A program made the translations under genes and the position numbers. A stretch of DNA of 64,000 nt, taken from NCBI GenBank assembly GCA_965153455.1, contig OZ234493.1, positions 8,732,213 through 8,796,212 on the forward strand. The letters run 5' to 3'. Positions 16,075 through 38,156 of this stretch are shown here, one piece after another. This DNA is from Sphagnum compactum. Taxonomy: Eukaryota. The notes beneath the pieces were generated by a model that worked only from the letters and a program-made list of their open reading frames with translations, was not told the DNA's origin and ran no database searches. Position 1 is the first letter of the stretch, and every line of letters begins with the position of its first letter.

Positions 16075-19000
16075 ATATCAAAAGGAGAGGGGGCCTACAA
16101 TTTGAGATGAATACAAAGTGATCACATCCAAACAAACACCTATCTTAAAAAATAAAAGAGAGAGAGAGTTCATGTTGTGGTTTTGACTACAAGCATCCAC
16201 TACAAGCATCCACTAGAATGAAATCACCATTTTACAACTTGTCTTACATTATTGAAAATGTTGTTTACAACTATTTTGATCTCTTTACAGAAGGGTAATC
16301 TGTAAAACACTTGAAACAAATTTCATAAGTTTATTTGGATCTTGCACCTCATTTCCAATGTGTAAGTCTCCATCCAAGAAAAGGGGAGGTACATACACCT
16401 ACTTCATAAGAGTTGGAGGAAAATTAACAGTTTTTTTATAGCCTCAAGAAATAGGTGTAAAAACTAGTGTTGGCAAGTTCTTGGATTTACACAAGTTTAG
16501 ATTTTAGATTAGGTTCTAGAATCCTTAGATTGGAGGGTCTAAGTTTTGTTAGAACTGCGCGTAGAACCTAATCAAATAACCAACATCTTTTCAAATTGAA
16601 TTAAGATTTGAACTGGGGTGTTACTCAATTAAAACAAGTCTAAATTCTCTAGGTAGTACAACTTTGTGAAAACAAAACATAAAATTGACTTACATTGTAA
16701 AGAACTTATTGCATTTGATTAGTTTTAAACTTTGTTCACTAGTTGAACAAACTGATGCTGCACCAAAAAAATAATCGTTTAGTTATGGGTAATGAAGATA
16801 GAATTGGGCTTGCTCTTAAAGCAAACTAACTCTAAATTCTTTATGAAAATAACCGAAATTAAAGATTTCAAAAATTTCCAAAGAATCAGTCTCAAGAACA
16901 AATCGAAGGTTCTATCAAAAAATAAAATAAAATAATAAAATAAAATAAAGTCAAAATCAAAAACTGAACAACACTGATAAGAACCCTCCCCCTCCTATGC
17001 CTCTTGATCTATGCATGTTTAAGTTGATAATAACATTTGTGTAAGATAATTGTATAATGGGTAAAACCCATGGGTAGGGGACATTTCCAAAATGTGGGAC
17101 CAGACTCGGATGAAAGGCCAGTGCATTCATGAACTAGGTAAACAGGATTGAGCCTGCAAATTGGCTTGAATTCACAAGATGCAGCAAGTTTTTCCTACAA
17201 CCAGTCAAGACCGTGCTCTTAAGTCTCCCAAATTCTAGTGATAGAATATGCACCATGGAAAATCATTAGGTTGTGAGCTGTTCACCAAGTTGACCAAAGA
17301 AAACTTTGGAGGCAATCTCTTTGAAAATCATTTCTTGCACTCAAGAGCAGACTAGTAAAATTAAAAAAATTATCAGGCAACTTAGGTTAAGCTTAGAACC
17401 ACATGTTTTAGAAATTATGCAAAATTGCTTCATGAATTTGGGTTCTTGGTGAAAACATTTGCAGTCAAAGATAAAGCCAGATTTTGCTTCTGTTTTTAAG
17501 GAAACCTCCACCCAAAAGAACCTAGTAAGGCCTGTTATAATAAACAAGTTAACATCAGCCGTTGCCGTATATCACCCATCATAGGAAATGGAAAAAATAT
17601 TCTTCTAAAATCTGTAATCTGAGCGAGTGGAACTTAAGATCAAATTTAGCTTGATTCTATTAGTAGCTAGTGATTCAAAATTTTCAAGTCAGAAAATAAA
17701 AAGATATATATTGTCACAAATTCTCTTTTTTTTTGAAAAGGTCAAATTTCCAGGGAAAATAATACCAACAAAAATTTGCCACATTTTGCCACAATTTTTA
17801 GATGTGGGGCTGTTTTTCACCAGTTTTCTACAGTTTTGACAGTTTTCGAAACACTTGATGCCAATTAATACTGAATAATTTTTCAGGGCAATTGCTAAAT
17901 CATGATGCTACTACATCACAGAATTTGGGAAAAAATGGGAGTTAGCCAGCCCTTTTATTTTTGGAGTGTGAATTTCACACAGTTGTGAAATTTGATCTCA
18001 TAAATTCAATCAGTATTTGAAACAAGAAATCCAAATTTCTTAAATAAAATTTAGAATGTCTTTTAAAATCACTATATTTCCGTAGATGGCTCAAGTAGCT
18101 AGGAAAAAAAAAAGGATGTTTAAATTTTTCCTTTGAATTTTTGTTAATAGCTGAATTTGACTAAATCAGCTTATGAATGATCACCACCTCAGCTACATCA
18201 CAACATTGAGAACAAAAAAACACTGGGCCACACATCTGAGCTTAATCAAACTCCAAAAAATAAGGTTGTGTTAAGCTTTGATTTCCCTTGAAATGTGGAG
18301 GATGGTTAACCATGAATATTGTCACTATTCAGGGTTTAAGAGCCAGGGTTTATGAGTTTGTAAGCTGGTAGTTGAGTTTGAAGAAACCTGTGCCATTATT
18401 TCTAGTGTTGCTGCATGTAGCCTTACTGACCATAATAATGCCAGTGGGGTTCTGAAAACTCAATGCCCACCTCCAAAGATGGGCATCACATTTTCAAAAA
18501 ACTTGTCATAATTTTTTTCCTTCTAAAAACATGCTATGGATTCCAGGAAAAACAATTAAAAAGAAGAATGCACACAATTTTTTTATGCCAGGTAAAGCCC
18601 TTGAGGTCGAGCTTTACAGGAATTGAGCCTGCACTTGGCTCCACACTTCGCAGGGCCCTTTTGCCCATAAAGCCCCACCCCAGGGCTTTACCCTACACAT
18701 TACTATCCAATTGGCATAAAAAGCAGCAGTGGTTTGTTGAATCCAGAACCCGAGGAGATGGAGGAACCGTGTTGAGAGGCTCCTTTACTTTATTAAGAAC
18801 TATTGCTGAGCTTCCATCATGAAGGTTCCTTCCAGCATCGGCCAGTTCTCCACTCAACTAAGTCCTGGCTTTCATTATATTTGGCAATCCAACATTGTCT
18901 TCATTCTCTCTCACCAAACGGAAGTTGAGGTCTTCGCTAAGCTTTAATATGCCATGGTATCTTGTACTGCGAGCTGGACTTCTGAGGACACTTTTCAAAA

Positions 19001-20571
19001 TTTTCCCTAAAATATATCCATTGTTTCCTCTCCAGTGAGCTTACTACCCCTTGATTTTAGCTATTTTTGGGAAATACATGCAGTGTCTTTGGGCCAGGCT
19101 GCCAGGAGTTGACGCACTTTTGCAATCCTTTTTCTTCACAGTCATAATAGAGGCTGAAAATGATGCTTGTGCTATGGACACAAATATGTGAGGTTGACTT
19201 TGCACAATGCTTAGAATGCTAGGATAAATCATTGGCGGCAGTTTCTGAGCTCTTTCCACATTGACATTACGAGGATTGGAGATTTTGGGCGAGCAAGGAA
19301 TTACTTGGTTGGTTCGAAGCTCAGTGTTGTGCGATTATAACTTTTCAAGAGAACCTCTGGTTCCAGTTCCAACTTTTTTTAAAATGTGAATGGTTCCCTA
19401 TTCCTCAAGTTTCAAGACTCTTGGTGTGTTAGTTTTTCAGAAAAACATTTAATAAAGTTATTAATAAAGTCACCCTCTCTTTCACCCCGTATCCACTCTG
19501 CTTTCCCAGCCCATCCCCTCTTCCAGTGATATCGGCAAAGCAATGAAATTTTATTAAATCTCAGCATGAAAATTAATGTTGAAACTCAGTATTTAATGCA
19601 CAAGGTTCTAGACTAATTATAGTAGTTGTACAGGTAAGAGCAGTGGAAATATATGTAGCAGCACTGGAGGCGCTCAGAAAAACGGAAAGAGGGGATGAAA
19701 AAGAGTTTACACCAAAATTAGTTACCAGCATTGCACAATCAATAAAAAGTGTTCATATGTGCTCACTAAATGCCTAAACTCCAATAAACAAAAGAAAACA
19801 AACTTGCATATATATATACTTGGCTAAATTTGGGACACTCAAGCTTGCTTGCATCTGTCGATGGGTGGGGGCAAGGAGGGTGGTAGCTCATTTTTCAAAT
19901 GTAACAATTACATGCCTAATTAAGTACCTAGTTACTGGTGATTAATGTAAGACTTTTTAAGGTTTAGGGTTACATAGCATATTTCTTGGCATATTCGTAT
20001 GCTGACCTTGAGTACACATGTAAAATGGGCACTCAGAGGAATGTATAACATTTTTGGTAACATTGTCCAATAATCAAGAGGCTTTGTTCAGATTAAATGA
20101 TCTTTAAATCATTGAAAAAGCTCTTTAAAAGGGTTATAACAAAAATCTGTCTTTGCCTTCAGGATTCGGCACGCACTCCAGCTTAGGTTGGCTAATTTGG
20201 GTTTTTTACACAGTCCACTCAGAAGTAGTTTAGCCCTGCAATTCAAAATTAATTTTGTTCCAAGTTCATTTCATTCTACTTCCACCATGAAAATAAGATT
20301 AAATTCAGGAAGCAACTGATATGCTGGTGCCATTGAGCTGTTACCTTCCCTAGGCCAGAGTGAATTAACAGCCACCAATGCACCAGTTGGCCGTTCTGTC
20401 CACTGGATGGGTTGCGTTTTTTCATTCGGCGCCGGATGGGGCTCATCACAGTCGATTTCTTTTTGCTGCTGACCACTGTACTTTTTTTTTTTTTTTCTTG
20501 CTCGTTTTTCCCTGGACCTGACCTCACACATAGCTACCCTGCTCACTTTTCTACCCTGTTCACTTTTCTAC

Positions 20572-20711
20572 CTAGCTACTGTACTCACCACCTACCCTAC
20601 TAACCTGGCTACTGTACTCACCACCTGCCCTACTAACCTGGCTACTGTACTCATCACCTACCCTACTAACCTAGCTACTGTACTTACCACCTACCCTACT
20701 AACCTAGCTAC
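20572..20711. repeat. Left subterminal tandem repeat of the MULE, 33-bp unit x about 4
   Basis: Unit CCTAGCTACTGTACTCACCACCTACCCTACTAA; further partial copies near 20945 and 22895. Confidence 0.85.
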
Positions 20712-23700
20712 CCTATTAATTACATACCCTACCCTAAAAACCTTACCCTAAATGCAATACCTGCATTTTGGGCCATTTCGAAAGTATGCATGTGGGGTTC
20801 AAGCTTTCTTTATACAAAGATCCTACCCTAAATGCAATACCTGCATTTTGGGCCATTTCGAAAGTACGCATGTGGGCTTTTAGCATCTTTATATGAAGAT
20901 CATACCCTAAATGCAATACTTGCATTTTGGGTCACATCACTAACCAAGCTACTGTACTAACCACCTACCCTACTAACCTAGCTACTCTATTAATTACATA
21001 CCCTACTAACTTAATCATTAGGTTTAGGGTTGAGACACATAAATTAATTGATAAGTTTTTCATAAATGTATAATAATTAATTTAAAATAAGCTAAATTTG
21101 GGGGGAAAATTTTAGGGTTTACACACATGTGAAGTAATACAATTGCATTTTATACCTTCTTCAAAAAGAATGGAAAAATTAGGTTGGAAAAATCACACAA
21201 AGGTAAAAGACATATCTTCTTTTTTGGTTTTGTACGAAATTTATTTGATTATTTCTAAAGATTAACATATTTTCTTTCAGTTAATAAATATTTATAATTA
21301 AAAACCTTTGAATTTTGGTTTCTAAATTTTTTCCTATGTTCTTTTAAATTTGGTTATTTTGCATTATATGATTTGTATAGTTTATATAGTTTTTTGGGTT
21401 TAGGGCATATATCACTAATTCTTCTTTTTGTTAGGGTTTGTATAGTTAGGGTTTATATGAAGATCCCACCCTAAATGCAATACCTGCATTTTGGGGCACA
21501 CAAAAAATACACATGTGGGGTTTAAGCATCTTTATATGAAGATCCTACCCTAAATGCAATACCTGCAATTTGGGCCACTCCGAAAGGACGCATATAGGGT
21601 TTAAGCTTCTTTATATGAAGATCCTACCCTAAATGCAATACCTACATTTTGGGGCACACAAAAATAATTAATTAATTTCAAATTAATATGCTAACAAAGG
21701 TGTGTATAGAGGTTAACGTTGTTGATTAGGAGTTCCATGATTCTTACTTCGTTTCATGAATTTGAAAAGAGGTTGTATTGTTTGTGGATCAAATAATATG
21801 ATGACAATTGTGATCAAACTTATCTTGGTGTAGGAATTTTTCATGAAAAAGCTGAACTTACAATCGATAACATGGAATAATTATCTTAAATAGTGATTTC
21901 AATAACTTATTAAAACAAAAATATACTTCAGTTAATTAATCAAATATCAAATTAATCAATCTGATTTTTGATAATTATTCATCTAAATTATTTGATAATA
22001 AATTAATTATCAGAAATATTTTATATTAAATTGGGGGGAAATTTTTGGGTTTAGATATATGTGACACAATACAATCTCGTTCTATATTTTCTTCAAAGAG
22101 ATTGAGAAAATGAGGTTGGAGTTATCACACAAATGTAATTAACAAACTTTATGTGAAAACCCAACCCTGAATGCGATACAAAGTTTGTTGAGATCAAAAA
22201 TAAACCAGCAACTATTATGAGACCTATATGCGAGTATTGCAAGAGATGCCAAAAAAAACCAGCAGCTATTATGGGAACTATATGCAGGTATTGCAACGAA
22301 TGTTATAAAAACCCAACGAATACCATGGATCGATATGCGGGTATTGCAACGAATGAAGAATGTCAGCAACTATTCAGTTGGTAAAAGTAAGTACGGGTGT
22401 AGGTATTGCAACGAAACCCCAAAATTCTAGTTCGTAAAGGTAAGTATAAGTCTGAAGTTGAAATGAAAAAACAAACCTAAATGTAATACCCACGTTTGAA
22501 AAAACCCCATCTAAATGGTTTGGATACCCTTAAGTGAAGACCTAGCCCTAAACACAATATGCATATGCAAAGTCACTTTGAAATAACCCAACCCTAAATG
22601 CAATACCTGCAATTTGGGTCACTCCTAAAGGACGCATGTAAGGTTTAAGCTTTCTTTATACGAAGATCTTACCCTAAATGCAATACCTGCATTTTGGGTC
22701 ACGTTGAAAGTACGCAAGTGGGATTTAGGCTTATTTATATGAAGATCCCACCCTAAATGCAATACCTGCATTTTGGGTCACTCTGAATAGCTACCTTACT
22801 CACTTTCCTACCCTCATAAGTATTGCACCAACCTTCATACCTTATTTATTATCCCTTACTCACATAGCTACCCTAATAACTAGTTATCCTACTGACCTAG
22901 CTATTGTACTAACCACCTACCCTACTAACCTAGCTACTCTATTAATTACATACCCTACTAACTTAACCATTAGGTTTAGGGTTGAGACACATAAATTAGT
23001 TCATAAGTTTCTCACAAATGTATAGTAATTAATCTAAAGTAGGCTAAATTTGGGGGGAAAATTTTAGGGTTTACACATATGTGAAGTAATACAATTGCAT
23101 TCTATATATTCTTCCAAAAGAGTGGAAAAATTTAAGTTGGAGAGATCACACAAAGGTAAAAGACATATCTTCTCTTTTGGTTTTGTATGAAAATTATTTG
23201 ATTGTTTTTGTAGATTAACGTATTTTTCATTATATAATTTGTATAGTTTTTTGGGTTTAGGACATATATTAGTAAGACTTTTTCTTGTTAGGGTTTGTAT
23301 AAATAGGGTTGTAATAAGGCTTATGGCAAAATATCATTTGAATTTTAAAGGTTATGCTTTATTATTTAGTGTATAAGAATTTGGTTCATATATTTCAAAA
23401 CCTAAGGTTTATACTCTAAATTTTGTTCATTGTATTGGTTTTTGATCTTTTCACTTGTTTAGATCTATACCATAATTTGAATTTCCTTTGTTTCCATATG
23501 TTCCATAGTTGCTAGGGTTTAATATTTTCTAACCCATTTTTTTACGAGTTATGATTTTTTAGGGTTGCATTTTCAATTGGGACTATAAACTTTGGTGGAA
23601 CGTTGTCATCTTTTATTCTTAAAGGTATGCATTTGTTTCTTGTTACTTCTTTTGTTTTTTTGTTTATATTTTTCACAATTCAACCTCTTTTCATTTCCTA

Positions 23701-24268
23701 CTTGTTGGATATAGAAAGGGCATCAAGTTTCATTAAATATACAAGCATAGATAAAGGTTTTATACTTTTACATGGATATTTCATATTCAATATTTCTTTG
23801 TAGTTCTTTTTTTCATACCCATATGCGAATTATGCATTGACTACCCACAACCAGTGTGGGTTTTATGGCTTAAGGCAGGTATTGCATTTTGCACCTTTCA
23901 AACAGTGTGCATTAATTATCATTATGTAGGTATTGCTACATGGGGTTTTCAGACATTATGGGTTTAAGGTACAATACGGGTATTGCATATGAGAAAATTT
24001 TCAATGATGGGAGGTTTAATAGCTCAATGTGGGTATTGCCAAAGTTTGTTTTAGTATATGGGTTCATAATGCAAGTGTTGTACGTTATGTACATTGGAAT
24101 AATAGGTTTTTTATATCATGATATGGGTGTTGTAATGGGAATTCCAAGTCACAACATTGATTTTAAAGGAGCCATGAATGTATTGCATTTTGGGTTTTTG
24201 TTCAATGATGAATGTTTAGAGAATTATAAATTCTCTTGATGCAGGAATTTGTCCTACTTCCTTCAATC

Positions 24269-26964
24269 ATGGGAAGGGTTCCAAAGTCCCATTCCATTCA
24301 TGTCCAAAACCCCACCAAGTCCCCTTTCTCAAATAAAGACTTGGTGTGGACGTTTGGGATACGCCATGGAGGGCAAAATAAAGTGAGCATTCAATTTGCT
24401 TATGTTCCGTATACTCGCATCTCGGAATTCTTGGAAGGTGAACGAGGGGATACGAGCACCCCTGTGGAATGGAGTGTTTACAAAAACTTTCCAAGCCAAA
24501 CGGATGTCAAGCATCCAACTATCAAAAACCACCTCGGGCATACATGGTAAACATTTATGGCATTAACCTTTTTAATTTATTTAATTCATATACCAAAGAT
24601 GTAATCATTTACATTTTGAAAGTTTTTTGGTCTAGGTATCAATGCGCATATGGACCAGAGGACTATCGAGAAAATTCAACCCACACTCGATCTATTAAAC
24701 GAGGATGCCTAGCGTCATTCTCAATCAAACGTCTATACACACGACCTGATGTGGCTGAGATCACAATTTATCATAAGGCCCATACACGAATTGATGGGTC
24801 ATTCGCACATGGTGAGCATGACCCAGAGTCCATTTCTCGTATGTCTCGTTATGCTCCACGCATGTCACAAGCACTGAAAGACCACATATGGGCCCAATTA
24901 AGCTTAGGTTATACCCCCAAACAAATATATGACAAGCATAAAGCAATTTGGTGAGAACGTGTGAATGCGGGTCAAAGCATGACACGAGATGATTTCATTC
25001 GGCTTCAAGACATTGCATATTTGGATCGAAAACATAAGAAAGGGAGTTGGCGTTTACACACTAACCCTGCAATTTCAATTCGGTCTTGGGCTCTCCAACA
25101 TCCGGAAGATGTGTTCTTTTTCCAAGATGTTGGTGAAATGAATGGAACTCAAGTCCCATTCACCATAGGTATTCAAACACCAACTCAATGTGAGTCCATG
25201 CTATCATATGGTCACAATGGTGCCATTTCTATGGATGCCACATTTGGCACAAATGACATGAAATTCCATCTATTCACCTTGATGGGATTTGATGATCATC
25301 GCACGGGTGTCCCTTTAGCCTGGATCATTACAGGTAGGCAAACAGTGCAAGATTTGATCGAATGGTTGAAACCATTAAAAGAGAAGATGTTATCACTCAT
25401 GCCACATTGGAAACCATCATGTTTTCTCGTTGATGATGCACCTCAAGAATTGAAGGCATTACGGTTAGTTCTATACCTAGTATCGACTTTGTGTTTATTT
25501 CCTTAAATGTTTTTTAATATCTTTCATAAAATTCTTGATTACTTCAAATGCATTTTATGTTGTACTAACCCCATCCACTCATGGATATTTTATTGCATAT
25601 GTGTCCTTATTAGGGTCGTATGGGGTATGGACAAGGTTCCCATCTACCTTTGTTGTTGGCATGTTCTCAAAGCATGGCGCCTACATGGTACTGAAAAAAT
25701 CAAAGATGTGGAAGTGCGGGGTGGAATCCTCCAAGACCTTCATGATGTGATGTACATGTCCATCAATCATGGAGAAACAATTGATGACTTCAAAGAGCGT
25801 GGGAGGGTTGCTGTGAGAGAAAGCCTTCATAAACATAGGCCTGGTGATGCGTGGACAAACTATTTCTGGACTTATTACCATCAATTTGGTAAGTGATAAT
25901 ACTTATCATGGTTCAGCATTCAAATTTATTTTGTATAATGTTATTCATCCTTGTGTATTGTGTTTATGTTTGTAGAATTATGGATGGTGGGTGTTCGAAG
26001 AGTGCCCCATTCCAACCAAGACACCCAAGTGAGCATTGAATCATATCATGGTGCGTTGAAACGTTGGCTTGCTCTTGACACAAGAGGCCTTAGAGGGCGT
26101 AGGATTGACTGGTTGGTGTGGCGATTAACAACAACCATTGCACGCCACTACATGCACACATTGGAAATGAAAAAGAGGGGTTTCATAAAAAACAAGGTTA
26201 TGGAGGCCATTATTACACGAAGTGTGGAGAAGGCAGCCCTTATTCCAATCAGCCATGTGTACCAACCAACCCTTGAGAGTGATGGAGCTTGGGCCGTACG
26301 GAGCCAACGCCTTCCCAATGTTATTTACACGGTGAAATTCCCATTCACCGAAATGTTTTGTTGCACATGCGAATGGGCATTGCGAGCGAACATGTGTAAA
26401 CACCAAATTAAGGTCATTCTCACATGCACAGACATTTCTCAAGAGGATATCATTCATTATTGTGGAACATGGTATGGATCACATCGTGGAGGGTTGGGTC
26501 ACATGTTTGCAGACCCGCAACATATTCCAGATGATATGGAGTCTAGTGATGATGACGAAGATGATCATCTTGAAGGTGATGATGGGATCATGGAATTTGA
26601 TGGGCTCATGAACATGGAGCAAAATGATCTCCCTATGGGTGCCATTGTAGGGTCTAATGAGACAATAATGTCATCAACCCCAATGGAAAGGGCTCTTGCA
26701 CAATTGGTCACTACAATGCAAGAGATCACAAATGAATGTAAAGAAGGCGATGTGACACTTTGTGAACATGCCACCTCACACATGAGAGTATTGGCATGTA
26801 ATATTCGTAACATACGCCTCACAAAGGCAAATGCAATTTCACACCCAGGATTGGTGTTACGCCGTGTAGAAGATGGATTGGGAAATAGTGTCAAACGGCT
26901 CAAAGATTGGCATGAAACAATGCTCAATCACACAAATGTACGTACTAAACGATGTCATGAATAA
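24269..26964 (+). pseudogene. MuDR/MULE transposase with SWIM zinc finger (about 789 codons), one premature stop
   Basis: Exons 24269-24546, 24636-25463, 25614-25888 and 25976-26964 join in frame (2370 nt, GT-AG). Motifs: YQCAYGPEDY..RGCLASFSIKRLY; DDE residues in ISMDATFGTN, FLVDDA and SIESYHG; CCWH (CxxH); SWIM CTCEWALRANMCKH. In-frame TGA at 24952-24954. A likely 5' UTR intron spans about 23625-24244. Confidence 0.9.
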
Positions 26965-28580
26965 ATGTTTCAATTACTAATCAAGATTGTTGCCATTAGC
27001 ACTAAGAATTTTCTTTTAGAATCAATGTTGTATGGAGGAAATCATACCCCAAATTCTTTGAACATCATGTATTCAACACACATGAAGTCCAATATGGCAC
27101 AAAGGTTATTATTGTTTCCAAATAATAAGCACAAAAAGTGTGAAATGCAAACACACAAGGATAATGATAATATTAGTGTTAGATGCAAGTATTGTAACTA
27201 GGCCCCAAAATCCCAGTTGGTAAAAGTAAGTACAAATGCAAGTATTGCAATCATGCCCCAAAATTCCAGTTGGTAAAGGTAAGTATGGATGTAGGTATTA
27301 CAATGAAACCCCAACATTCCAGTTAGTATACGTAAGTATAAGTTCGGGTATTGCAAGTTTAAATGAAAAACAAGCCTAGATGCAATACCCACACGTTAAA
27401 AAAAAACCCATCTAAATGGTTTGGGTACCCTTAAGTGAAGACCTAGCCCTATACACAATATGCAGACGCAAAGTCACCTTCAAAAAACCCTACCCTAAAT
27501 GCAATACCTGCATTTTGGGTCACACGAAAAATACGCATGTGGGGTTTAAGCCTTCTTTAAATGAAGATCCTACCCTAAATGCAATACCTGCATTTGGGGT
27601 CACTCTAAAATAATTAGTTAACCCTTACTTTTTTTCATGAATTTGAAAGAGGTTCTATTATTTGTGGAACAAATAGTACAATGACAATTGTGATCAAGCT
27701 TATTTTGGTGTAAGAAATTTTCATGAAAAAGTTGAACTTGCAATTTATAACATGGAATAATTATCTTAAATAATGATTCCAATAACTTATTAAAACAAAA
27801 ATATACTAAATTTAGTCAATCAAATATCAAATTAATTAATCTGATTAAATCCAACTTTTTATTTTCAAGTAAATAAATTTAAGCCAAATGATTGGTTAAT
27901 TATTTTAAATAAATAAATGATTATCTAATTCTTCATAATTAATCATCTAAATTATCTAAAATAATGGTCTATTAATTATTTAATTATATGACAAATTTTA
28001 TTGATAATTCATTAATTATCATAAATATTTTATATTAAATTGGGGGGAAAATTTTAGGGTTTAGACATATGTGAAACAATACAATTGCATTCTATATCTT
28101 CCTGAAAGAGATTGGGAAAATTAGGTTGGAGTTATCACACAAAGGTAAAAAAAAACCTTATGTGAAAACCCAACCCTAAATGCAATACAAAGTTTGTGAA
28201 GATCAAAAAATAAAAAGTTCAAGCTTAAATATTTTTCAAAGATGTTCATATTTTTTTTCCCCTTTTAAAGTTGTATATTCATACTAAAAACGTAAATATA
28301 AAGTCTTTAATTTAATGAGATTTTAAATTGTGTTAAAAAAAAATCAAAACACATAATAGTGGTTTAAATATTGGTCCAAATATATTGTTATTTATAAAAC
28401 CTAATACATAAATAATGATATTATGGAATTATACTGTTGATCCATTTTCAATACATATAATATTTTAGGGGTTTAGGGTTTAGGGTTGGGTTTTCACAGG
28501 TTAAGGTTGGGTAAACCCTAAAACCCTAAACCCTACAAATATTAATAGTAAATAAAATAAATCTACAGTGCATTATAGAG

Positions 28581-29328
28581 GGTTTAGGTTTAAGGTTTAG
28601 GGTTTAGGTTTAAGTTTAGGGTTTAGATTTAGGGTTTAAGGTTAAGGTTTAGGTTTAAATTTAGGGTTTAGGTTTAAGTTTAGGGTTTAGATTTAGGGTT
28701 TAAGGTTAAGGTTTAGGTTTAAATTTAGGGTTTAGGTTTAAGTTTAGGGTTTAGATTTAAGGTTTAGGGTTTAGGTTTAAGTTTAGGGTTTAGGGTTAGA
28801 TTTAGGGTTTAGGGGTTTAGGGTATAAGTTAGGGTTTAGATTTAGGGTTTAAGGTTAAGGTTTAGGTTTAGGGTTTAGGGTTTAGGTTTAGATTTAGGGT
28901 TTACGGTTTAGGGGTTTAGGGTTTAAGTTAGGGTTTAGATTTAGGGTTTAAGGTTTAGGTTTAGGTTTAAGGTTTAGGGTTTAGGTTTAGATTTAGGGTT
29001 TAGGTTTAAGGTTTAGGGTTTAAGTTAGGGTTTAGATTTAGGGTTTAAGGTTAAGGTTTAAGTTTAAGTTTAGGGTTTAGGTTTAGATTTAGGTTTTAGG
29101 GTTTAGGCGTTTAGGGTTTAAGTTAGGGTTTAGATTTAGGGTTTAAGGTTAAGGTTTAGGTTTAAGTTTAGGGTTTAGGTTTAGATTTAGGGTTTAGGTT
29201 TAAGGTTTAGGGTTTAGGTTTAGATTTAGGGTTTAGGTTTAAGGTTTAGGGTTTAAGTTAGGGTTTAGATTTAGGGTTTAAGGTTTAGGGTTTAGGTTCA
29301 GGTTTAGGGTTTAGGGTTTAGGTTTAGG
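28581..29328 (+). repeat. Interstitial degenerate telomeric array (TTTAGGG with TTTAGG, TTAAGG and TTTAGA variants)
   Basis: About 750 bp of continuous plant telomere-like repeats with recurring variant blocks; a short inverted pre-array lies at 28465-28535. Confidence 0.95.
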
Positions 29329-30699
29329 ATACTGATAATGATGCTGCAAAAGCTGCTGTTGTGGCTACAAAGAAAAGTGATTGGTCTTAAGTGCGCACCT
29401 ACCGACTAAGTACGCACACTCCTCCTAGGTTCAAGTTGCATACTTAGGCGGGAGGCTATTGTACGCATGTGGGTTTAAGCATCTTTATACGAAAATCCTA
29501 CCCTAAATGCAATACCTGCACTTTGGGTCACACAAAAAATACGCATGTGGGGTTTAAGCCTTTTTTAAATGAAGATCTTACCCTAAATGCAATACCTGCA
29601 TTTAGGGTCACTCTAAAATAACTAGTTAATTTCAAAATCATATGCTAACAAAGGTGTGTATGGAGGTTGGGGTTGTTGATTGGGAATCCATGATTGAAAT
29701 TTAGAGTTTGGGAAACCCTAAATTAATTAACAGTTTTTTTACAAATTAATAGTAAATGAAATAAATCTATGGTGCATTATAGGGGGAATTTTATATGCAA
29801 AAAAATGCAATACATATTTGCAAGATCATACTGAAATAATACATAGGTGATTGGAGGAAAGCATATGTGAAAACCCTAAACCCTAAATGCAATACTCGCA
29901 TGTAATGTCATTTCAAAAATGGTCTGGGTACCAAAATTATGTCTTTTTATATACCTAAATTAAATATTATTCTAAATTAATTTTATGACAAAATGTAAGT
30001 TTTACAATGAATGAAAAAACCAGCAACTATTATGGGACCTATATGCGGGTATTGCAAGAGAACCCAAAAAAACCAGTCGCTATTTTGGAGACTATATGCG
30101 GGTATTGCAACGAATGAAGAATGTCAACGATTATTTGTGCCCTTTATGTGGGTATTGCAAGGAATGCAAAATGCCAGCGGCTATTATGGGACTCATATGA
30201 GGGTATTGCAATGAATGGAAAAGGCCATTGCCTATTAATGCAAAATGTCTGTGGCTATTTTTTGAGGTTATATGCAGGTATTGCATATTAGAAAATGGTC
30301 TTATGGAGTTCATAATAGAAAATGATGTGGGTATTATATGTTTAAAATGTGTGGATTATTTTAAAAGTCTTCAAGTGATGTGAGTCCTATTAACTTAGAT
30401 GTAAGTATTGTATAATGTTTATTTTGATCTTTGATTTGATTCTTACATCTCAAGTACAAACAAAATTATGACAAAGAAGACATATAGGATTAACCAAATA
30501 CACATCAAACAAGTGTGAGTAGCCGATACTATTATATTAATAAAAGATGTACAAAAATGGGTGCATGGAAAATTACTAGAGAACCCAATGAAGAAAAAAC
30601 ATTGGATCACTAGAACATATCAAAGGATCAAAGTTCAAAATTGGGTAGTCCAAAAAAGAAAAGGGCTACAAAACCTTACTAATTATATAAAATGAAACC

Positions 30700-32427
30700 C
30701 TAACCCATATCAGTATCTACAATCCCATGTTTAGCTCGATATGCAACTGCTGCATTTGCAGCCTTTGCTGCATGATGAGCAGTGTAAAGATGGCGGCGTT
30801 GCATCTCAATCTGAACTGCATTTGCAACAAACTGGGCCTTTGTTTGGTCCTGAACCCTACAAACACCCAAAAATCACCAAATTAAACCGTAACACACCTT
30901 GGATCAAATACAATAAAAAAATAATAAACATTGCTTAATATTTTTTTTTACCTTCCATGAATCATTCTAGATTCATGAAAATCCAAAACATTCGATAATT
31001 GTTTTGTCCGACTTGTTTTGCTGGACTCTCGCTCCCAATTCTTCACATCCCATGCCGTCTTTAATTGTCGTGCGTATGCACAACGAGTGGATCGGATCAT
31101 CCCCTGTAAGTCATCATCCTTCTCCATTCGTACAATTGCATCTCGCGCCACACTGCCCACACCCCAGGCATCAAGGCCCAACACCTTCAACAATTGCTCT
31201 GAAGCAAATCTAACCAAAGGTGGTTTTGGGAGTGGTGGACACTGTTTTGCAAGAGTCATCAAATGATTCCACTCGCGTTCTGCTTTGGCACGAGCACGAC
31301 TAGCAGCTTTCTGATCATTTCGCCTCTGCACAGCCATCGCATCTCCCAAAATGCGAGCGTTCATCTTGCCATGGTCTTGATGCCGAGGACCTCATGCAGC
31401 AATTGAAGGCCTCCCAGGTTTTGACTTTTCTGCCACCAAGCCGTGCACCTCCTTCAAATGCTGCGTCAATAGCCATTTCGCACAATATGCGACAGTGCAA
31501 TTGTGGACTTTGCACTTCCATTTGGACCCGACCTTTGTCCATTCCTTATCCTTCCGAGCCAGATTAGGTGGACAAATAACTGCAGGTGGTTGAGAAGCTT
31601 GCTCAGTTTCCAGTTCCGGACCTAAACCCAAAAACAGAAAGTTCAATAAACAAAATGCAGGTATTGCAAAACATCAAATCACAAAATTACATATTACTTC
31701 TATAAACATGAACTGTTCTAAGGTATTGCAGTAAATTTTTTTTGACAAAAACATTTCTGCACCATCCAACAAATGGAAGGTGCAGGTGCAATTAAATTTT
31801 GAGAAATTTGTACAATTTTATTAATTTGTAATTAATCTAATGTCCTATCTTCTAATGTCCACGAATTCTACAGTAATCTATACCAATGCTACCCTTTTGT
31901 TTCAATTGTGATAGAGCACAATTATGCTCACCAGTTTCCCGATCTAATGCAGCAATATTATCCTTAGCAACAATTTGCTGGGCACCTCCCGCATCTGATG
32001 TGGTGACAATTTCCTAGGCACCTCCCGCATCTGATGTGGTGACAATTTCCTAGGCACCTCCCGCATCTGATGTGGTGACAATTTGCTGGGCACCTCCCGC
32101 ATCTGATGTGGTGACAATTTCCTGGGCACCTCCCGCATCTGATGTGGTGACAATTTCCTGAGCACCTCCCGCATCTGATGTGGTGACAATTTCCTGGGCA
32201 CCTCCCGCATCTAATGTGGTGACAATTTCCTGGGCACCTCCCGCATTTGATGTGATGACAATTTCCTGGGCACCTCCCGCATCTGATGTGGTGACAATTT
32301 CCTGGGCACCTCCCGCATTTGATGTGATGACAATTTTTTGGGCACCTCCCGCATCTGATGTGGTGACAATTTCCTAGGCACCTCCCGCATCTCCTGCATC
32401 GCTTTTCTTTACTCTCCTCCTACCCAT
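30700..32427 (-). pseudogene. MULE accessory gene: 12-aa tandem repeat, C2H2 zinc finger and uncharacterised helical C-terminus (about 440 codons), four premature stops
   Basis: Exons 32427-31932, 31621-30952 and 30856-30700 join in frame via GT-AG (1323 nt): MGRRRVKKSDAG(DAGGAQEIVTTS)n..ALDRETG|PELETEQ..WKCKVHNCTVAYCAKWLLTQHLKEVH (C-x4-C-x12-H-x4-H)..MIHGR|VQDQTKAQ..GIVDTDMG*. Stops: TAG at 32374-6, 32050-2 and 32014-6; TGA at 31392-4. Confidence 0.8.
31976..32392. repeat. Coding minisatellite, 36-bp unit x about 11.5
   Basis: GGCACCTCCCGCATCTGATGTGGTGACAATTTCCTG recurs every 36 bp from 31981 to 32377. Confidence 0.97.
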
Positions 32428-32579
32428 TATAACCTCCAACCCTAAACCAGTAGTTATTACCAATTGTTAATTCTAATGAACAAAAGCACAAGCAACAACA
32501 AAACAAAAAAAATAAATCGCCACTAGCAGCAAGAAAAAAGAAAAAAAAAGCGTTGCAACTTTGAGCTTTAGAAAATTGC

Positions 32580-32890
32580 AGCTTTGAGCTCGGAGCTTTA
32601 AACGTTGCAGCTTTGAGCTTTGAGGGTTTAGGGTTTAAACCCTAAACCCTAAACCTGCAGCGCTGCAGCTCTGAGCTCCACGAGTTAGGAGCAGCGCAGC
32701 AGCTCCGAGCTCCACGAGCTTGGAGCAACTCCAAGCTCTGAGCTCCACGAGCTTGGAGCTCCAGCACAGCTCCGAGCTCCACGAGCTTGGAGCTCTAGCG
32801 CAGCTCCGAGCTCCACGAGCTTGGAACTGTGCTGCTCCGAGCTCCGAGCTCCACGAGCTGGGAGCTGCAACTCCGATCTCCCAGCTCCAC
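32580..32890. repeat. GC-rich GAGCTC-based satellite, block 1
   Basis: Repeated GCTCCGAGCTCCACGAGCTTGGAGCT modules. Confidence 0.9.
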
Positions 32891-33371
32891 GAAAATTCTT
32901 GGAAAAGCTGATTCCACAAAGCTTTCATAACAAAAGAAATCCAAAGAACAACGATGAGCAATTGCTTTTTCCTTACCTGGATACTGCAGGCAGATTCAGG
33001 GCAAACGAAGCTTGTGTCCAAGTCCTTACCAAAACTGCGCCCAAAATCTTTCCTGCAAAACAGAATTAGTTTTCAGGGAGCCTCCTCTTCAAAAGTCTAA
33101 TTCTCCCCCTCTCCCCCCCCTCCAACACCTCTCTGAGATTCAACAGAAATGCAATTCCACGAAATTCCATCACCAGACACTTGGAATGGAAAAAAAATCA
33201 CGAAGACCAAAATGCTATCAGTGCTGATGCTTTTCCAAGCCAACACGACGACAGCTTCATTCTTGCTACCGAAGCCTGTTCTACCGTCACTCGTAAAACT
33301 CCGCACACAACAGCAAAAAAATGAAAAAAGAGAACAGATTTCTCGCTTTTCACAAACGTTGTTCCTTCTCT

Positions 33372-33375
<4 letters not shown>

Positions 33376-33425
<50 letters not shown>
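33376..33425. repeat. (GA)n microsatellite
   Basis: About 25 uninterrupted GA units. Confidence 0.95.
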
Positions 33426-33427
<2 letters not shown>

Positions 33428-33809
33428 ACAAAGTTCTCCTTCCGGCGCCTACTATAATGTATCGATCTCCCTACACCTCCTAACACAAGTCCGAATTTTC
33501 CATCAGATATCAATCCGCAATGAAGAAGAACATCCCGGGCCTGATAAAAGTGGAAAACAAGAAAAAACAGAACTCGCTAGCCAATTGTCATCCCTAGTAC
33601 CTGCTGGTGTCTCGAAGCTGATAAAAGACAAAGCAGAGAGAATTGCCTTTCCAAAACTGCCAGCCAAGAAAACCAAAAGAAACTGAAAACCCTAAACCCA
33701 ACAAACGAGCCGTAAATTGGTCCACTTCTCTCTCAGTCAGATTCCCGCAAATTCTTGTCTCCAAAAATAAATTTATAATAGAAAATTTTCGTCGCGAAAG
33801 CTCCAAACA

Positions 33810-34216
33810 CCAGCGCTCGAGCTCGGAGCTGCAGCTCCAAGCTCCGAGCTCCACGAGCTGGGAGCTGCGTTGCAACTCCGAGCTCCACGAGCTTGGAGCC
33901 AATTGTCATCCCTAGTACCTGCTGGTGTCTCGGAGCTGCAGCTCCCAGCTCCGAGCTGCAGCTCCAAGCTCCGAGCTCCACGAGCTGGGAGCTGCGCTGC
34001 AACTCCGAGCTCCACGAGCTTGGAGCTCCAGCGCAACTCCGAGCTCCACGAGCTGGGAGCGTGGAGCGTGGAGCTTGGAGCTCCAGCAGAGCTTGGAGCT
34101 GCAGCGTGGAGCTCCGAGCTCCACGAGCTTGGAACGTGGAGCTCGGAGCTGCTCCAATCTCGTGGAGCTCGGAGCTGCGCTGCTCCGAGCTCCAAGCTCC
34201 ACGAGCTTGGAGCTCC
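33810..34216. repeat. GC-rich GAGCTC-based satellite, block 2
   Basis: Same modules as block 1, in both orientations (CCACGAG and CTCGTGG). Confidence 0.9.
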
Positions 34217-35044
34217 TCTTCAAGCAAACATTGTTGGACAAAGATGGAAATTGACTGAAACCAAAGAGTGCAGAACATACATGAGGACACAGTACCGTCG
34301 ATAAGTTCGGCACCTAGGAGATGTTTATTGCTGAAGCTCGGTACCGCTGATATCTTCTTCTGGCAGGATAGAAGCGTTGAAGAGGAGGAAAGAAACCAGC
34401 AATATAATATTATTACATGAGATTCTTACGAGCACCGAAGTCTGCCGCGAGGGGGAAGGAAATCCGTAAGGGCGAATGCTCAACTACAACTGTCTTCCTT
34501 TCCTTTACGATCAAGTGGAAGTACGCAACAACAACAGCAACAGCAACGGCGCCATATATAATAAGCAATCCAGTAATGAACGAGAGGCCGCGTGCAGAGC
34601 GCCTATAAGCAATGTTCTCAAAAACTGTACAGCTGCAACAACACCAGCAGCTCCTCAAACACAGCGTTGCAGCAAAACCACGAAAATCTACTCACATGTA
34701 AGTGAGCAGGAAGATGTACAAACCAATCGGCAACTCTAGGAAAAGGAAGCCTTCACACCAAATTGCACGCACGCGCTGCTGCTGATCTCCGAGAACCATA
34801 AACCTGAAGACGAGATATCGGAGAAAACTTGCACAATAGTCACCAAAACTACCGAAAATACAGACACCGAGAAAGAGAAAAGACACAGAAAACCGCACCG
34901 AGAGAGACAGAGAGACAGAGACAGAGAGGGAAATATGCAGTGAAAAGCAGAGGGTGAAAGAAGCAAGCGACCAGAGAGGAGACCAGAACTCAAAACGATT
35001 TTTAAAAAAATTCTACGCGAAAAAAAAAGGAGTTACAAGTTCGG

Positions 35045-35565
35045 GCAGCTCCGAGCTCCACGAGCTTGGAGCGTGGAGCTCGGAGCTGCTCCAATCTCGT
35101 GGAGCTCGAAGCTGCGCTGCTCCGAGCTCCGAGCTCCACGAGCTTGGAGCTCCAGCGCAGCTCCGAGCTCCACGAGCTTGGAGCTTGGAGCTTGGAGCTC
35201 CCAACTCGTGGAGCTCGGAGCTGTAGAGCTTGGAGCTGCAGCTCCCAGCTCGTGGAGCTCGGAACTGTAGAGCTTGGAGCTGCAGCTCCCAGCTCGTGGA
35301 GCTCGGAGCTGCAGCTCCGATCTCCAAGCTCCACGAGCTTGAAGCTGCAGAGCTTGGAGCTACAGCTCCCAGCTCGTGGAGCTCGGAGCTGCAGCTCCGA
35401 TCTCCAAGCTCCACGAGATCGGAGCTGCGCTGCTCCGAGCTCTGAGCTCCACGAGCTTGGAGCTCCAGCGCAGCTCCGAGCTCCGAGCTCCACGAACTTG
35501 GAGCTCCAGCGCAGCTCCGAGCTCCAAGCTCCACGAGCTTGGAGCTGCAGCTCCGAGCTCCACGA
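35045..35565. repeat. GC-rich GAGCTC-based satellite, block 3
   Basis: Same modules in mixed orientation. Followed at 35640-35790 by GGTGCTCCCG repeats and at 35810-35880 by a purine-rich GGTAGGAGG subterminal tract. Confidence 0.9.
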
Positions 35566-38156
35566 TGCAAAATAAAAAAGAAGAAGGGAAAAAAGCTTAC
35601 CTTGAAGCTCTGGCGCTCCTGCTTCAGGAAAAAAGCTCCAGCTCTGGCGCTCCCGCTCTGGCTGTGGTGCTCCCGGTCTGGCTTCGTCACTCCCGCTCTG
35701 CCTGTGGTGCTCCCGCGATGGTGCTCCCATTCTCGCTGTGGTGCTCCCGCGATGGTGCTCCTGCTCTCGCTGTGGTGCTCTGGCGATGGCGATTGGAGGT
35801 AAGACGTTGGAGGTAGGTAGGAGGGGGGAGGTAGGAGGGGGTAGGTAGGAGGTAGGAGGGGGGAGGAAGGTAGGTAGGGGAGAAATGTTTTGGGGCAGAG
35901 TAGAGGCGGGAGAAAAAAAAAATATTTGGGCAGTCCGGATGTGGTTTTGGTTCATCCCCAAAACAGGTTGAACGGGCTCATCCTCAACTGGTGCATTGGT
36001 GGCTGCTAATTCACTCAAGCCACCTTCCCTATATCTTTTGTTAGATACGGTCTTGCAAATATAAGATGAGCAACAACCAAGTGTGGATTTCAATGTTCAA
36101 CCAGGCATTACTGTGTCAACACTGAATTCAGTTTTTTGACAGCTTCATGGAACATTTCTTATTTTAGTGGTTACTGGTTTAAATTTGGCATACAAGGTAG
36201 ACCCATTATGCAATGAGCTGTTTGTTGGGACTTAAGCAACTTGCAAAATTGGACAAGATGCTTTAGGGATGAATGTGATGTGAGCAACTACATGAAAAAA
36301 TATGTTCCATCTCTAGAGATTTCAGATTACTATAATTCTTTTGTGTAGAGTAAGAATGGAGTGTGTGTTCTGGGCTACACAGCTTTACCATCCATAATTT
36401 TGAGTGTCTTGAAACAGACACTTCAATCAAAGAATTGAAATTTGGTTCTGAGAGAACTCCAACAATGTAGAGATCATAAAGGAAAATTGTGATACAGCTA
36501 AAAAAGCAAGTCAAAGTAGATCATTGTTTGTATTAGCTAACAAAATCATAGAGGTTGCTGAGCATATCAATCATAATCTGTTTTCTGGCAGAAGGAATGC
36601 AACTCAATTTCAAGGCAAGATCACAATTTGGGTAAATTCTGGCAGTTTAATAAATTCCCAATGACTATTTTACAACGCCTAGAAATATAATAATTCTGTT
36701 TTTGGCAACATCAAGTATCCCCTGGTGATGAATCAAGAATCTAAAACTGTTTGCAATCTGGTTGGGGAAATGTAGGTGAAAAGCATGTGGACAAATTGCT
36801 ACAAAATGATGGAAAAGTCCTCATAAACTCGAGTATCCCAAAATTTTGAACTTTTTTTGTTGGACACTTGTGGATTATGTTACTTTGCAATTGATTATTG
36901 AGGTATTTAAATGCACTCATAGGACATGTTCCCCTAGGTATGAATATTTGAATTGGCAATGGCAACCGATTTTGTCATTTAAGACAACATGGAAACTTGC
37001 TAGAATGACAGGTATGGACCTTTCCATGTAGAGGATAGCACTCTACATTTAAATGAAATTTACATGTAAATTTCAGCATTTAACGGGTTGGCGGTTTGTA
37101 GTTCATATGGACCTTAGAAAGCTTATTTCTTTCTTTCTCTAGAAAACATTTTATCTAATACTTGAGGTTTTAAGACCTAAACTTCAGGATAGCAAGAATT
37201 TACATTGAAAAACAGCCCATATTCAAGTTGTCTGACGTTTAGGGTTAAGGACAGATGTTCAAGGGGAGGCAGTAATGAGGAAGTTTGTGCGATAGGATAG
37301 GTATAAAAAAGTAGCTTTATAAGAACCCTTCATGTGTTTCAAATTGTAGGTGGGTTTGACACATTTGCATGAAACAAATTTAGTAATGGGTGCATTAAAC
37401 TGATTCATTTTCAAGTAGCAAAATCCAGATTTGCAGAGCTTTACACTTTATATGTTTTGTTACTTTTCAATTTTTACAGATAGTTTAAGCATTACGGTTT
37501 ACTATAATTGTTAACTGGAGAAAACCTATAGTTTACAAATTGGCTTTAGGGTTAAGATAGAAAATGCCATTCATATTACAGTTTGCAAAAGTATAGAAGA
37601 GCACGTAACATACATTGTTATTTGTTGTTCCCTACACTCCATGCTGAGCTAGAACTACTAATTTGTTCATTATTCTCCATGAAAGTAATGAAAAATTATA
37701 CAATTTCTCCTTCTCACTTGGTATTAGCAGATTACCACCCAACTTCAACTTCCAGAGCAAACAAGTACAAATAGCCAGCTACGGTAGTTAAATTTCAAGC
37801 ACTCTGGCACATGTGAAAGATAAGTGGAGCATTTGGTCACAACATGGGGAATAGAATAGTTATGATACAAGTTTGATATCATAACTATTTATCGATTGAT
37901 AGTGCCATATTCTTCAGGTTCCTCTGTTGATATTGCCTTTCCATTATGGTGTTAAACCCTCACAGTTTGTGATATTGTCTTCCCATTATGGTATTTTACA
38001 TTCAAAATTCAGTCATTTTACAACGGTAATTTGAATGCATTGTGGAAACTTTGAATGCATTTGTGTAGGGAAAAAGATTGTTCTCTTTCACTGATTAAAA
38101 TCGAATCCAACTGTAAAGTCGCTACTCATGCTAAACAATAGAAATTGTAATTTCAA

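Follow-up and report, generated by a model that had tools for sequence, protein, structure and literature searches.

Mutator-like elements (MULEs) are DNA transposons bounded by terminal inverted repeats (TIRs) of 14 to 500 bp, often hundreds of base pairs long, and by target duplications of 8 to 11 bp, and several are known to carry a second gene, such as mudrB, vanB/vanC, mutB, or the C2H2 open reading frame (ORF) of Spectre (PMC6446971). A survey of 1007 plant genomes reported diverse MULE accessory proteins (PMC12973397). Here we describe an element of 15,669 bp, at positions 20353 to 36021 of a 64,000-nucleotide stretch of the Sphagnum compactum genome (contig OZ234493.1; the whole stretch is called the window below). 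It is very probably a decayed copy of a multicopy MULE family of mosses, a cut-and-paste DNA transposon with a transposase gene, a convergent gene for a small C2H2 zinc-finger protein, and clusters of a 9-nt word, GGTATTGCA, in the noncoding sequence around both.

The two-gene architecture itself is already known. Maize MuDR likewise has a Mutator transposase, two convergent genes between inverted ends, and a 9- to 11-bp duplication, and by description its accessory protein, MURB, also lacks recognizable domains and is needed for integration (PMC6446971, PMC12973397). The Arabidopsis element VANDAL21 (Hiun) is a MULE with extra genes in which a short motif forms tandem noncoding arrays 5′ of the transposase gene and in accessory introns, and its accessory protein joins a conserved core to variable tandem peptide repeats and is less conserved than the transposase (PMC5735166); all of these properties have counterparts in the window family. 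Unlike VANDAL21 (VANA/VANB/VANC), the window family has one accessory gene instead of two, clear inverted ends, and neither DUF1985 nor DUF287, which are the domains of VANC (PMC5735166). The Spectre MULEs of aphids and other arthropods resemble it in pairing a C2H2 ORF and a transposase ORF with inverted ends and a duplication, but the likeness is by description only, since their hosts are animals, their ends are 74 bp, their duplication is 8 bp, and plant MULEs stay separate from the MULEs of other hosts (PMC6446971). Yeast Mutyl is similar, again by description, in that its second ORF, mutB, is credited with a DNA-binding role (PMC6446971). The novelty lies in the family itself, which combines a moss host, short ends, an accessory protein of unnamed family with a C2H2 finger and a helix, and the 9-nt word. 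We found no characterized example of a bryophyte MULE accessory protein in the literature searched. The inverted ends of MuDR are about 200 bp long, unlike the 37-bp ends of the window family, whose accessory protein further differs from that of MuDR in having a C2H2 finger. The parallels to VANC, namely, an arrayed motif, variable peptide repeats, and an accessory gene less conserved than the transposase, are a lead and not a finding.

The first-pass annotation had identified a Mutator element whose boundaries are intact and whose two genes converge, and this is upheld by the ends, the duplication, the transposase domain, and the gene models. The left end pairs with the reverse complement of the right end at 34 of 37 positions. 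A 32-nt core of the end occurs at exactly two places in the window, with 0 and 1 mismatches, and was matched in 0 of 100 shuffles; the 10-mer ACCTTCCCTA, which abuts both ends, also has exactly two occurrences in the window, and two or more matches were obtained in 1 of 100 shuffles. The duplication agrees at 10 of 10 positions and falls within the MULE range of 8 to 11 bp, and the TIR, short at 37 bp, is nevertheless inside the 14- to 500-bp range of MULEs (PMC6446971). Related loci show the same differences between left and right end at positions 4 and 5.

Other copies were sought by scanning a metagenome collection with the last transposase exon (exon 4), which gave at least 600 pattern matches; among the matches listed, 578 of 600 encode a relative, and 114 protein clusters match this exon. 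The best 80 loci were retained for comparison, and these formed 62 nonredundant groups once near-identical contigs had been merged. When the window was tiled against these loci, homology began in the bin starting at 20250, which holds position 20353, and stopped in the bin starting at 36000, which holds 36021, whereas none of the 80 loci matched bins 19750 to 20249 or 36250 to 37031, outside the two ends. The 37-bp end was found at 24 further places in the loci. The first-pass annotation had called for copies with other duplications, and these were present among the metagenome loci: L067 is a complete copy of 13.3 kb with the duplication TGGTTTGGG (9/9), L049 and L050 are complete copies of 10.2 kb with a duplication matching at 8 of 9 positions, and L044 (left flank) and L006 (right flank), whose accessory-gene translations are identical, together give CCATGTAGG (9/9). 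Because these copies show 9 bp, we take a 9-bp duplication to be the family norm; the 10/10 match in the window copy could equal 9 bp plus one chance match. The recurrence of the layout and ends at many loci with different 9-bp duplications indicates that the unit transposed whole. Two family ends face each other over the same 9 bp (GCAAAAGTT) in L049 (218-370) and L050 (258-410); it seems that a copy was inserted at the edge of another or that the target was shared. The family is placed in mosses by a protein, P0115, whose source label is Sphagnum balticum, and by runs labeled moss metagenome. With 9.06 kb between the transposase stop and the right end, the window copy is the longest seen; the others have 5.8 to 8.3 kb. 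No account of the family was found in the literature searched on MULEs in moss or Sphagnum and on Sphagnum DNA transposons; transposable-element tables (moss genomes, PMC12973397) may list it.

Three GT-AG introns join the four transposase exons. Exon 2 matched the Pfam MULE domain (PF10551) with an E value of 6.2e-8 and 33.4 bits (cutoff, 27.6), and a ZSWIM1-3 RNaseH-like model reached 2.3e-5, under its cutoff. In exon 4, a SWIM-like pattern, CxCx(n)CxH, is readable, and Pfam SWIM (PF04434) gave an E value of 0.17 and 11.9 bits (cutoff, 19.6). Exons 2 to 4 hold motifs resembling what we take to be the catalytic D, D, and E motifs of MULEs. A Cys/His-rich N-terminal region precedes the MULE domain, and Pfam recognized no DNA-binding domain in the N-terminal part of exon 2. 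No PDB relative of the transposase core was found at an E value of ≤1, and longer proteins akin to exon 4 were sought and not found, which is weak evidence. The frame contains one in-frame TGA, at 24952 to 24954; this codon reads TGG in 45 of 49 aligned relatives.

The accessory gene lies on the opposite strand. Its frame opens with an ATG at 32427, and exon 1 crosses a 36-bp array to a GTGAGC donor at 31931; past the AG at 31623-31622, the frame resumes in phase into the exon that encodes the finger, and a short last exon follows intron 2. A diverged 36-bp unit, in 2 to 5 copies, occupies the same place of exon 1 in relatives. We rejected a metal-binding repeat in the Cys/His-rich frame of this array, CGRCPGNCHHIR; the frame extending from the ATG to the donor and on into exon 2 is SDAGGAQEIVTT, which fits the N terminus of P0115. 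This Sphagnum-labeled protein of 281 residues agrees with the accessory model at its N terminus and at the exon 1/2 junction: the two have a basic start (MGKRRRLRKS in P0115 and MGRRRVKKS in the window model), acidic repeats, the finger, and the segment right before the finger in common. Three in-frame TAG stops (32376-32374, 32052-32050, and 32016-32014) fall in array units. A fourth stop, TGA, is at 31394-31392, a site that in 28 relatives reads AGA (14), GGA (11), TGA (2), or AAA (1). Both genes are interrupted, and with one stop in the transposase and four in the accessory gene, the window copy is unable to supply either protein.

The C2H2 finger is encoded near 31440 to 31520 in exon 2 and has classical spacing, C-x4-C-x3-Y-x5-L-x2-H-x4-H. 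Pfam matches to it were weak, with zf-C2H2 in 1 of 30 family members (E value, 0.0063) and a ZNF451-type model at 0.098. AlphaFold modeling of P0115 from a 30-row alignment gave a mean predicted local distance difference test (pLDDT) score of 58.7, with residues 1 to 128 disordered, two strands and a helix at the place of the finger, and then a confident 44-residue helix. Foldseek found no match to the accessory model in the PDB at an E value of ≤0.001, VIA-align (wide) matched only long helices of a generic kind (Z, ≤5.3), one chance-level hit (E value, 0.36) came from a profile search of PDB sequences, and ESM Atlas gave no usable match. The VANC domains DUF1985 and DUF287 were detected in 0 of 30 accessory-family members at an E value of ≤0.01 and were not found in the window accessory pieces at ≤10, a scan that covered all but exon 3 (52 residues). 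By HMMER, 174 representatives matched the accessory protein at an E value of ≤1e-3, down to 26% identity; these relatives are mostly short ORF fragments and have the motifs QDHxxMNA, KPxLVxLxS..LLxxLGIxxWGVG, and AWDxxNW in common. The product would combine a basic N terminus, tandem repeats of 12 residues that are acidic and variable, a single C2H2 finger, and a long helix, and its C-terminal part appears to be conserved and to belong to no known family.

The two genes keep their relationship in other copies. The accessory gene lies downstream of the transposase gene, in convergent orientation, in 32 of the 80 loci (26 of the 62 nonredundant groups), and it is present in 25 of the 33 loci that reach at least 6 kb past the transposase stop. 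The pairing of the two genes between such ends, on which the first-pass annotation had staked its reading, thus recurs elsewhere. Comparison of the window copy with 31 loci gave a median ratio of nonsynonymous to synonymous divergence (dN/dS) of 0.28 (range, 0.21 to 0.38) for the accessory gene, with differences of 0.198, 0.172, and 0.310 at the three codon positions; among the loci themselves, the positions were equal (0.174, 0.168, and 0.160). Since third codon positions account disproportionately for its divergence from relatives, the accessory gene was probably a working gene of the element, formerly under constraint.

Positions 29700 to 32050 were compared with contigs from three RNA libraries and a single DNA run. 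The RNA runs X16 and X17 are near-identical in every table, are probably one data set, and are counted as one. RNA-library contigs, 88 to 99% alike, lie on accessory exons 2 and 3, and of the sampled transposase-region words, 20 to 28% occur in RNA-library contigs of moss and plant metatranscriptomes; RNA libraries can contain DNA. The RNA libraries covered accessory intron 1 poorly, which with contigs is uninformative.

Tandem Repeats Finder gave 54 rows within positions 19000 to 37500, and the arrays are of three kinds: coding, family-wide noncoding, and private to the window copy. Of the internal motif arrays proposed in the first-pass annotation, those with GGTATTGCA are indeed noncoding and family-wide, but the 36-bp array is coding, and the telomere-like and GAGCTCC arrays, present in 0 of 80 loci, are private to the window copy. 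The family-wide units, of 33 bp (subterminal), 79 bp, 53 bp, and 51 bp, hold the same places in all 10 loci that were run through Tandem Repeats Finder, and the last three have the 9-mer GGTATTGCA in common. This word occurs 26 times in the window, compared with 0.57 expected, always within 20753 to 31730 and never in exons, and 36 of the 37 window occurrences of its 7-nt core, GTATTGC, are inside the element. Clusters of the word also occur in a duplicated left arm. It is missing from the termini: the first copy is 400 bp inside the left end, and the last 4.3 kb before the right end contain none. The 8-mer GTATTGCA was found 9 to 15 times inside the element and 0 or 1 time outside it in each of four complete loci, and it was absent from 33.8 kb of flanks of seven further loci. 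The block AACCCTAAATGCAATACC, which includes the word, is the best-conserved part of the 79-bp unit; this family repeat also carries AACCCTAAA beside GGTATTGCA. A CCTACC-rich block lies near the right end as well, inverted relative to the left one, and the 14-bp repeat GGGAGGTAGGAGGG recurs in L006, L010, L018, and L049.

Table 1. Features of the element, in window coordinates (TRF, Tandem Repeats Finder; HSPs, high-scoring segment pairs)
Feature	Position	Strand	Remarks
Left target-site duplication ACCTTCCCTA	20343-20352		Abuts left end
Left TIR, 37 bp	20353-20389	+	
Left subterminal 17/33-bp repeats, CCTACC-rich	20534-20732	+	33-bp unit kept in loci (103 HSPs)
Left-arm rearrangement	20736-23249		Duplicates 20939-21453 and 22857-23249
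Five GTATTGC cores, ~51-bp spacing	23879-24186	+	Just 5′ of transposase ATG; same placement in L067
Transposase gene	24269-24546, 24636-25463, 25614-25888, 25976-26964 (exons)	+	789 codons
53-bp array and 79-bp units, both with GGTATTGCA	27183-27621		3′ of transposase; arrays there in 10/10 loci
Degenerate telomere-like array, AGGGTTT	28579-29328	+	~115 units, 77% matches; between the two genes
79-bp and 51-bp arrays, seven GGTATTGCA	29462-30285		3′ of accessory gene
Accessory gene	32427-31932, 31621-30952, 30856-30700 (exons)	-	440 codons; two GT-AG introns
Two GGTATTGCA	31660-31730	+	Accessory intron 1; also in L067 and L030
36-bp array, 11.8 copies	31970-32392	-	Inside accessory exon 1; encodes 12-residue repeat SDAGGAQEIVTT, ~12 copies
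Right-arm variable region, three self-complementary GAGCTCC-type arrays	32655-32892, 33798-34223, 35032-35570		Built on GAGCTCCACGAGCTTGGAGCTGC
Right subterminal 20/34-bp and 14-bp (GGGAGGTAGGAGGG) repeats	35635-35878		TRF
Right TIR, 37 bp	35985-36021	-	
Right target-site duplication ACCTTCCCTA	36022-36031		Abuts right end

About 4.8 kb of arrays was found in the window copy only, by comparison with the 80 loci. The telomere-like array stands in place of an AT-rich segment common to 46 loci: no locus aligned to bins 28750 to 29249, 4 of 80 aligned to the bin at 28500, and a telomere 20-mer was present in none of the 80. The right-arm region from 32655 to 35570 (3.2-kb right arm) holds, in addition to its arrays, two spacers of unique sequence and, at 33372 to 33425, a (GA)27 tract. 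Its array sequence GAGCTCCACGAG had no occurrence in 742 kb of loci, and the right-arm arrays occur nowhere else in the window; at this place, relatives have shorter palindromic repeats of different sequence, and palindromic arrays may be a property that is kept while the sequence changes. A nested foreign transposon was considered as the source of these 3.2 kb and rejected, since neither ends nor a duplication was found and the sequence of relatives is replaced rather than split. A palindrome of telomere-like units (GGTTTAGGGTTTAGGGTTTAAACCCTAAACCC) lies at 32623 to 32655, about 200 bp upstream of the accessory ATG. In the left arm, which is 2.9 kb in the window compared with about 1.2 kb in relatives (L027, L044, L067, and L024), the duplicates lie on either side of additional 79-bp and 51-bp repeats of the intergenic type. 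We regard the telomere-like and GAGCTCC arrays as most likely repeat expansions of this copy or its lineage, without a role in transposition. Outside the element, the window contains a plant peroxidase-domain ORF (PF00141; E value, 1.7e-21) at 13087 to 13551 on the minus strand and a weak, subthreshold subtilase match (E value, 0.0011) in an ORF at 1249 to 1746, also on the minus strand; given these pieces of host genes in the flanks, the element lies in a genic neighborhood.

In the mechanism that we propose, a DDE transposase would act on the 37-bp ends by cut and paste and would perhaps recognize the CCTACC-rich subterminal repeats at both ends too. The accessory protein would be an element-encoded nuclear DNA-binding regulator of transcription or chromatin that reads GGTATTGCA, with targets upstream of the transposase gene, between the two 3′ ends, and in accessory intron 1. 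We put forward this role as a reader of GGTATTGCA clusters only tentatively and would expect it to fail more often than not; a MURB-like integration helper that contacts the transposase is about as likely, and an accessory protein without any function is unlikely.

It is also conceivable, if somewhat doubtful, that the GGTATTGCA arrays are regulatory or titrating sites bound by the transposase and that the accessory protein has another job, for example as a MURB-like helper. The transposase of the AtMu1 MULE is reported to activate cognate copies by itself, in a sequence-specific manner (10.64898/2026.08.24.746577, preprint), MURA is reported to interact with MURB and MULE accessory proteins to be diverse (PMC12973397), and a Cys/His-rich N terminus is at hand in the window transposase before its MULE domain; however, Pfam recognized no DNA-binding domain in that part of exon 2, and in both the window copy and L067 the motif is absent from the two termini, where transposition sites are expected. 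Anti-silencing of the VANC type, in which the accessory protein would bind its own arrays, strip methylation or silencing, and coevolve with its targets, is very unlikely here. What speaks for it is by parallel only: dense noncoding motif arrays 5′ of the transposase gene and in an accessory intron, comparable to those of the VANC21 motif YAGTATTAY (PMC5735166), a conserved core with variable tandem peptide repeats as in VANC proteins (PMC5735166), and an accessory gene more diverged than the transposase gene (Kimura two-parameter [K2P] distance, 0.282 versus 0.091). Against this, DUF1985 and DUF287 were seen in none of the 30 members, no covariation is visible, as the sampled family conserves motif and finger alike, a dN/dS of 0.28 denotes purifying selection rather than an arms race, and all sampled copies are dead. 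It is correspondingly improbable that a bryophyte MULE lineage independently evolved VANC-like self-recognition, in which a single-C2H2 protein with fast-changing tandem peptide repeats would bind the GGTATTGCA arrays around both genes and so switch on, or protect from silencing, copies of its own family only. A further reading, in which the second gene is a host fragment captured in the manner of a Pack-MULE and the arrays are functionless by-products of slippage or faulty gap repair, also seems unlikely. MULEs do frequently capture host DNA (PMC6446971), about 4.8 kb of arrays is private to a window copy whose left arm is rearranged, and each sampled accessory copy is broken. Yet the position and orientation of the accessory gene are kept in 26 nonredundant groups, the GGTATTGCA clusters hold their places family-wide, and third-position-biased divergence together with the dN/dS of 0.28 argues against a passively carried host fragment. 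Its distant relatives (26 to 40% identity) are themselves short, broken ORFs typical of repeats, and one search for longer proteins gave a single full-length relative that is element-like and without host-type architecture. Pack-MULEs are nonautonomous and lack a transposase, whereas a transposase gene is present here.

Divergence is uneven along the element. Median K2P distances from the window copy to the loci were 0.091 for transposase exon 4, 0.097 for transposase exon 2, 0.116 upstream of the transposase gene, 0.143 in the intergenic region, 0.192 for the 3′ part of the accessory gene, and 0.282 for accessory exon 2, and divergence from all relatives is two- to threefold higher from 29800 to 36021 than from 20353 to 29800. 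One explanation, which we consider credible although short of an even chance, is that the window copy is a mosaic in which the left part (~9.4 kb, ending near 29.8 kb) and the right part (~6.2 kb, with the accessory gene, its upstream region, and the right end) came from two diverged lineages of the family and were joined by recombination. Such an origin would account for the step from K2P values of 0.09 to 0.14 left of ~29.8 kb to 0.19 and 0.28 over the accessory gene and for the best identities of 93% at the left end and 88% at the right end. Positions 31841 to 35760, moreover, cannot be aligned to any locus, except for a short block at ~32389 to 32520 in 8 loci, and the accessory gene has extra divergence of the selected type that the transposase gene does not have (synonymous divergence [dS], 0.645 for the accessory exon versus 0.108 to 0.165 for the transposase). 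The nearest relatives, however, are alike for both genes (L004, L013, L069, and L073), the pairwise distances of the two genes correlate (r = 0.48; 406 pairs), and among the loci, too, the accessory exon is about 1.8 times as diverged as the transposase. A higher local rate, for example from more C-to-T decay in the GC-richer accessory exon, explains part of the pattern. Transitions dominate (transition/transversion ratio, 3.7 to 4.7), and the GC content of the loci is 0.40, compared with 0.44 to 0.48 in the window copy, values that fit C-to-T decay of silenced copies and would place the window copy among the less decayed ones.

Several observations weigh against our reading of the element as a member of a MULE family with a working accessory gene. 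The other complete copies carry 9-bp, not 10-bp, duplications. Almost every relative has stops in at least one transposase exon, all 32 copies of accessory exon 2 are broken, with 1 to 9 stops each, and no full-length copy free of stops was seen among the sampled loci; the lack of codon periodicity among the loci implies that most sampled copies have long been dead. Eight of the 33 long loci are without the accessory gene, Pfam assigns the accessory protein to no family at threshold, and the RNA-library contigs contained no intron-spanning joint across either accessory intron. The three repeat units share 14 nt around GGTATTGCA and could descend from one unit, and binding of the word by any protein is putative.

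In the family described here, a transposase has a conserved partner in a small C2H2 protein, and a single short DNA word fills the noncoding space around both genes. If the protein or the transposase binds the word and alters methylation, sequence-specific self-regulation of transposons would not be peculiar to Arabidopsis. If not, this would be one more mostly dead family of moss transposons, of use mainly for masking and for dating insertions.

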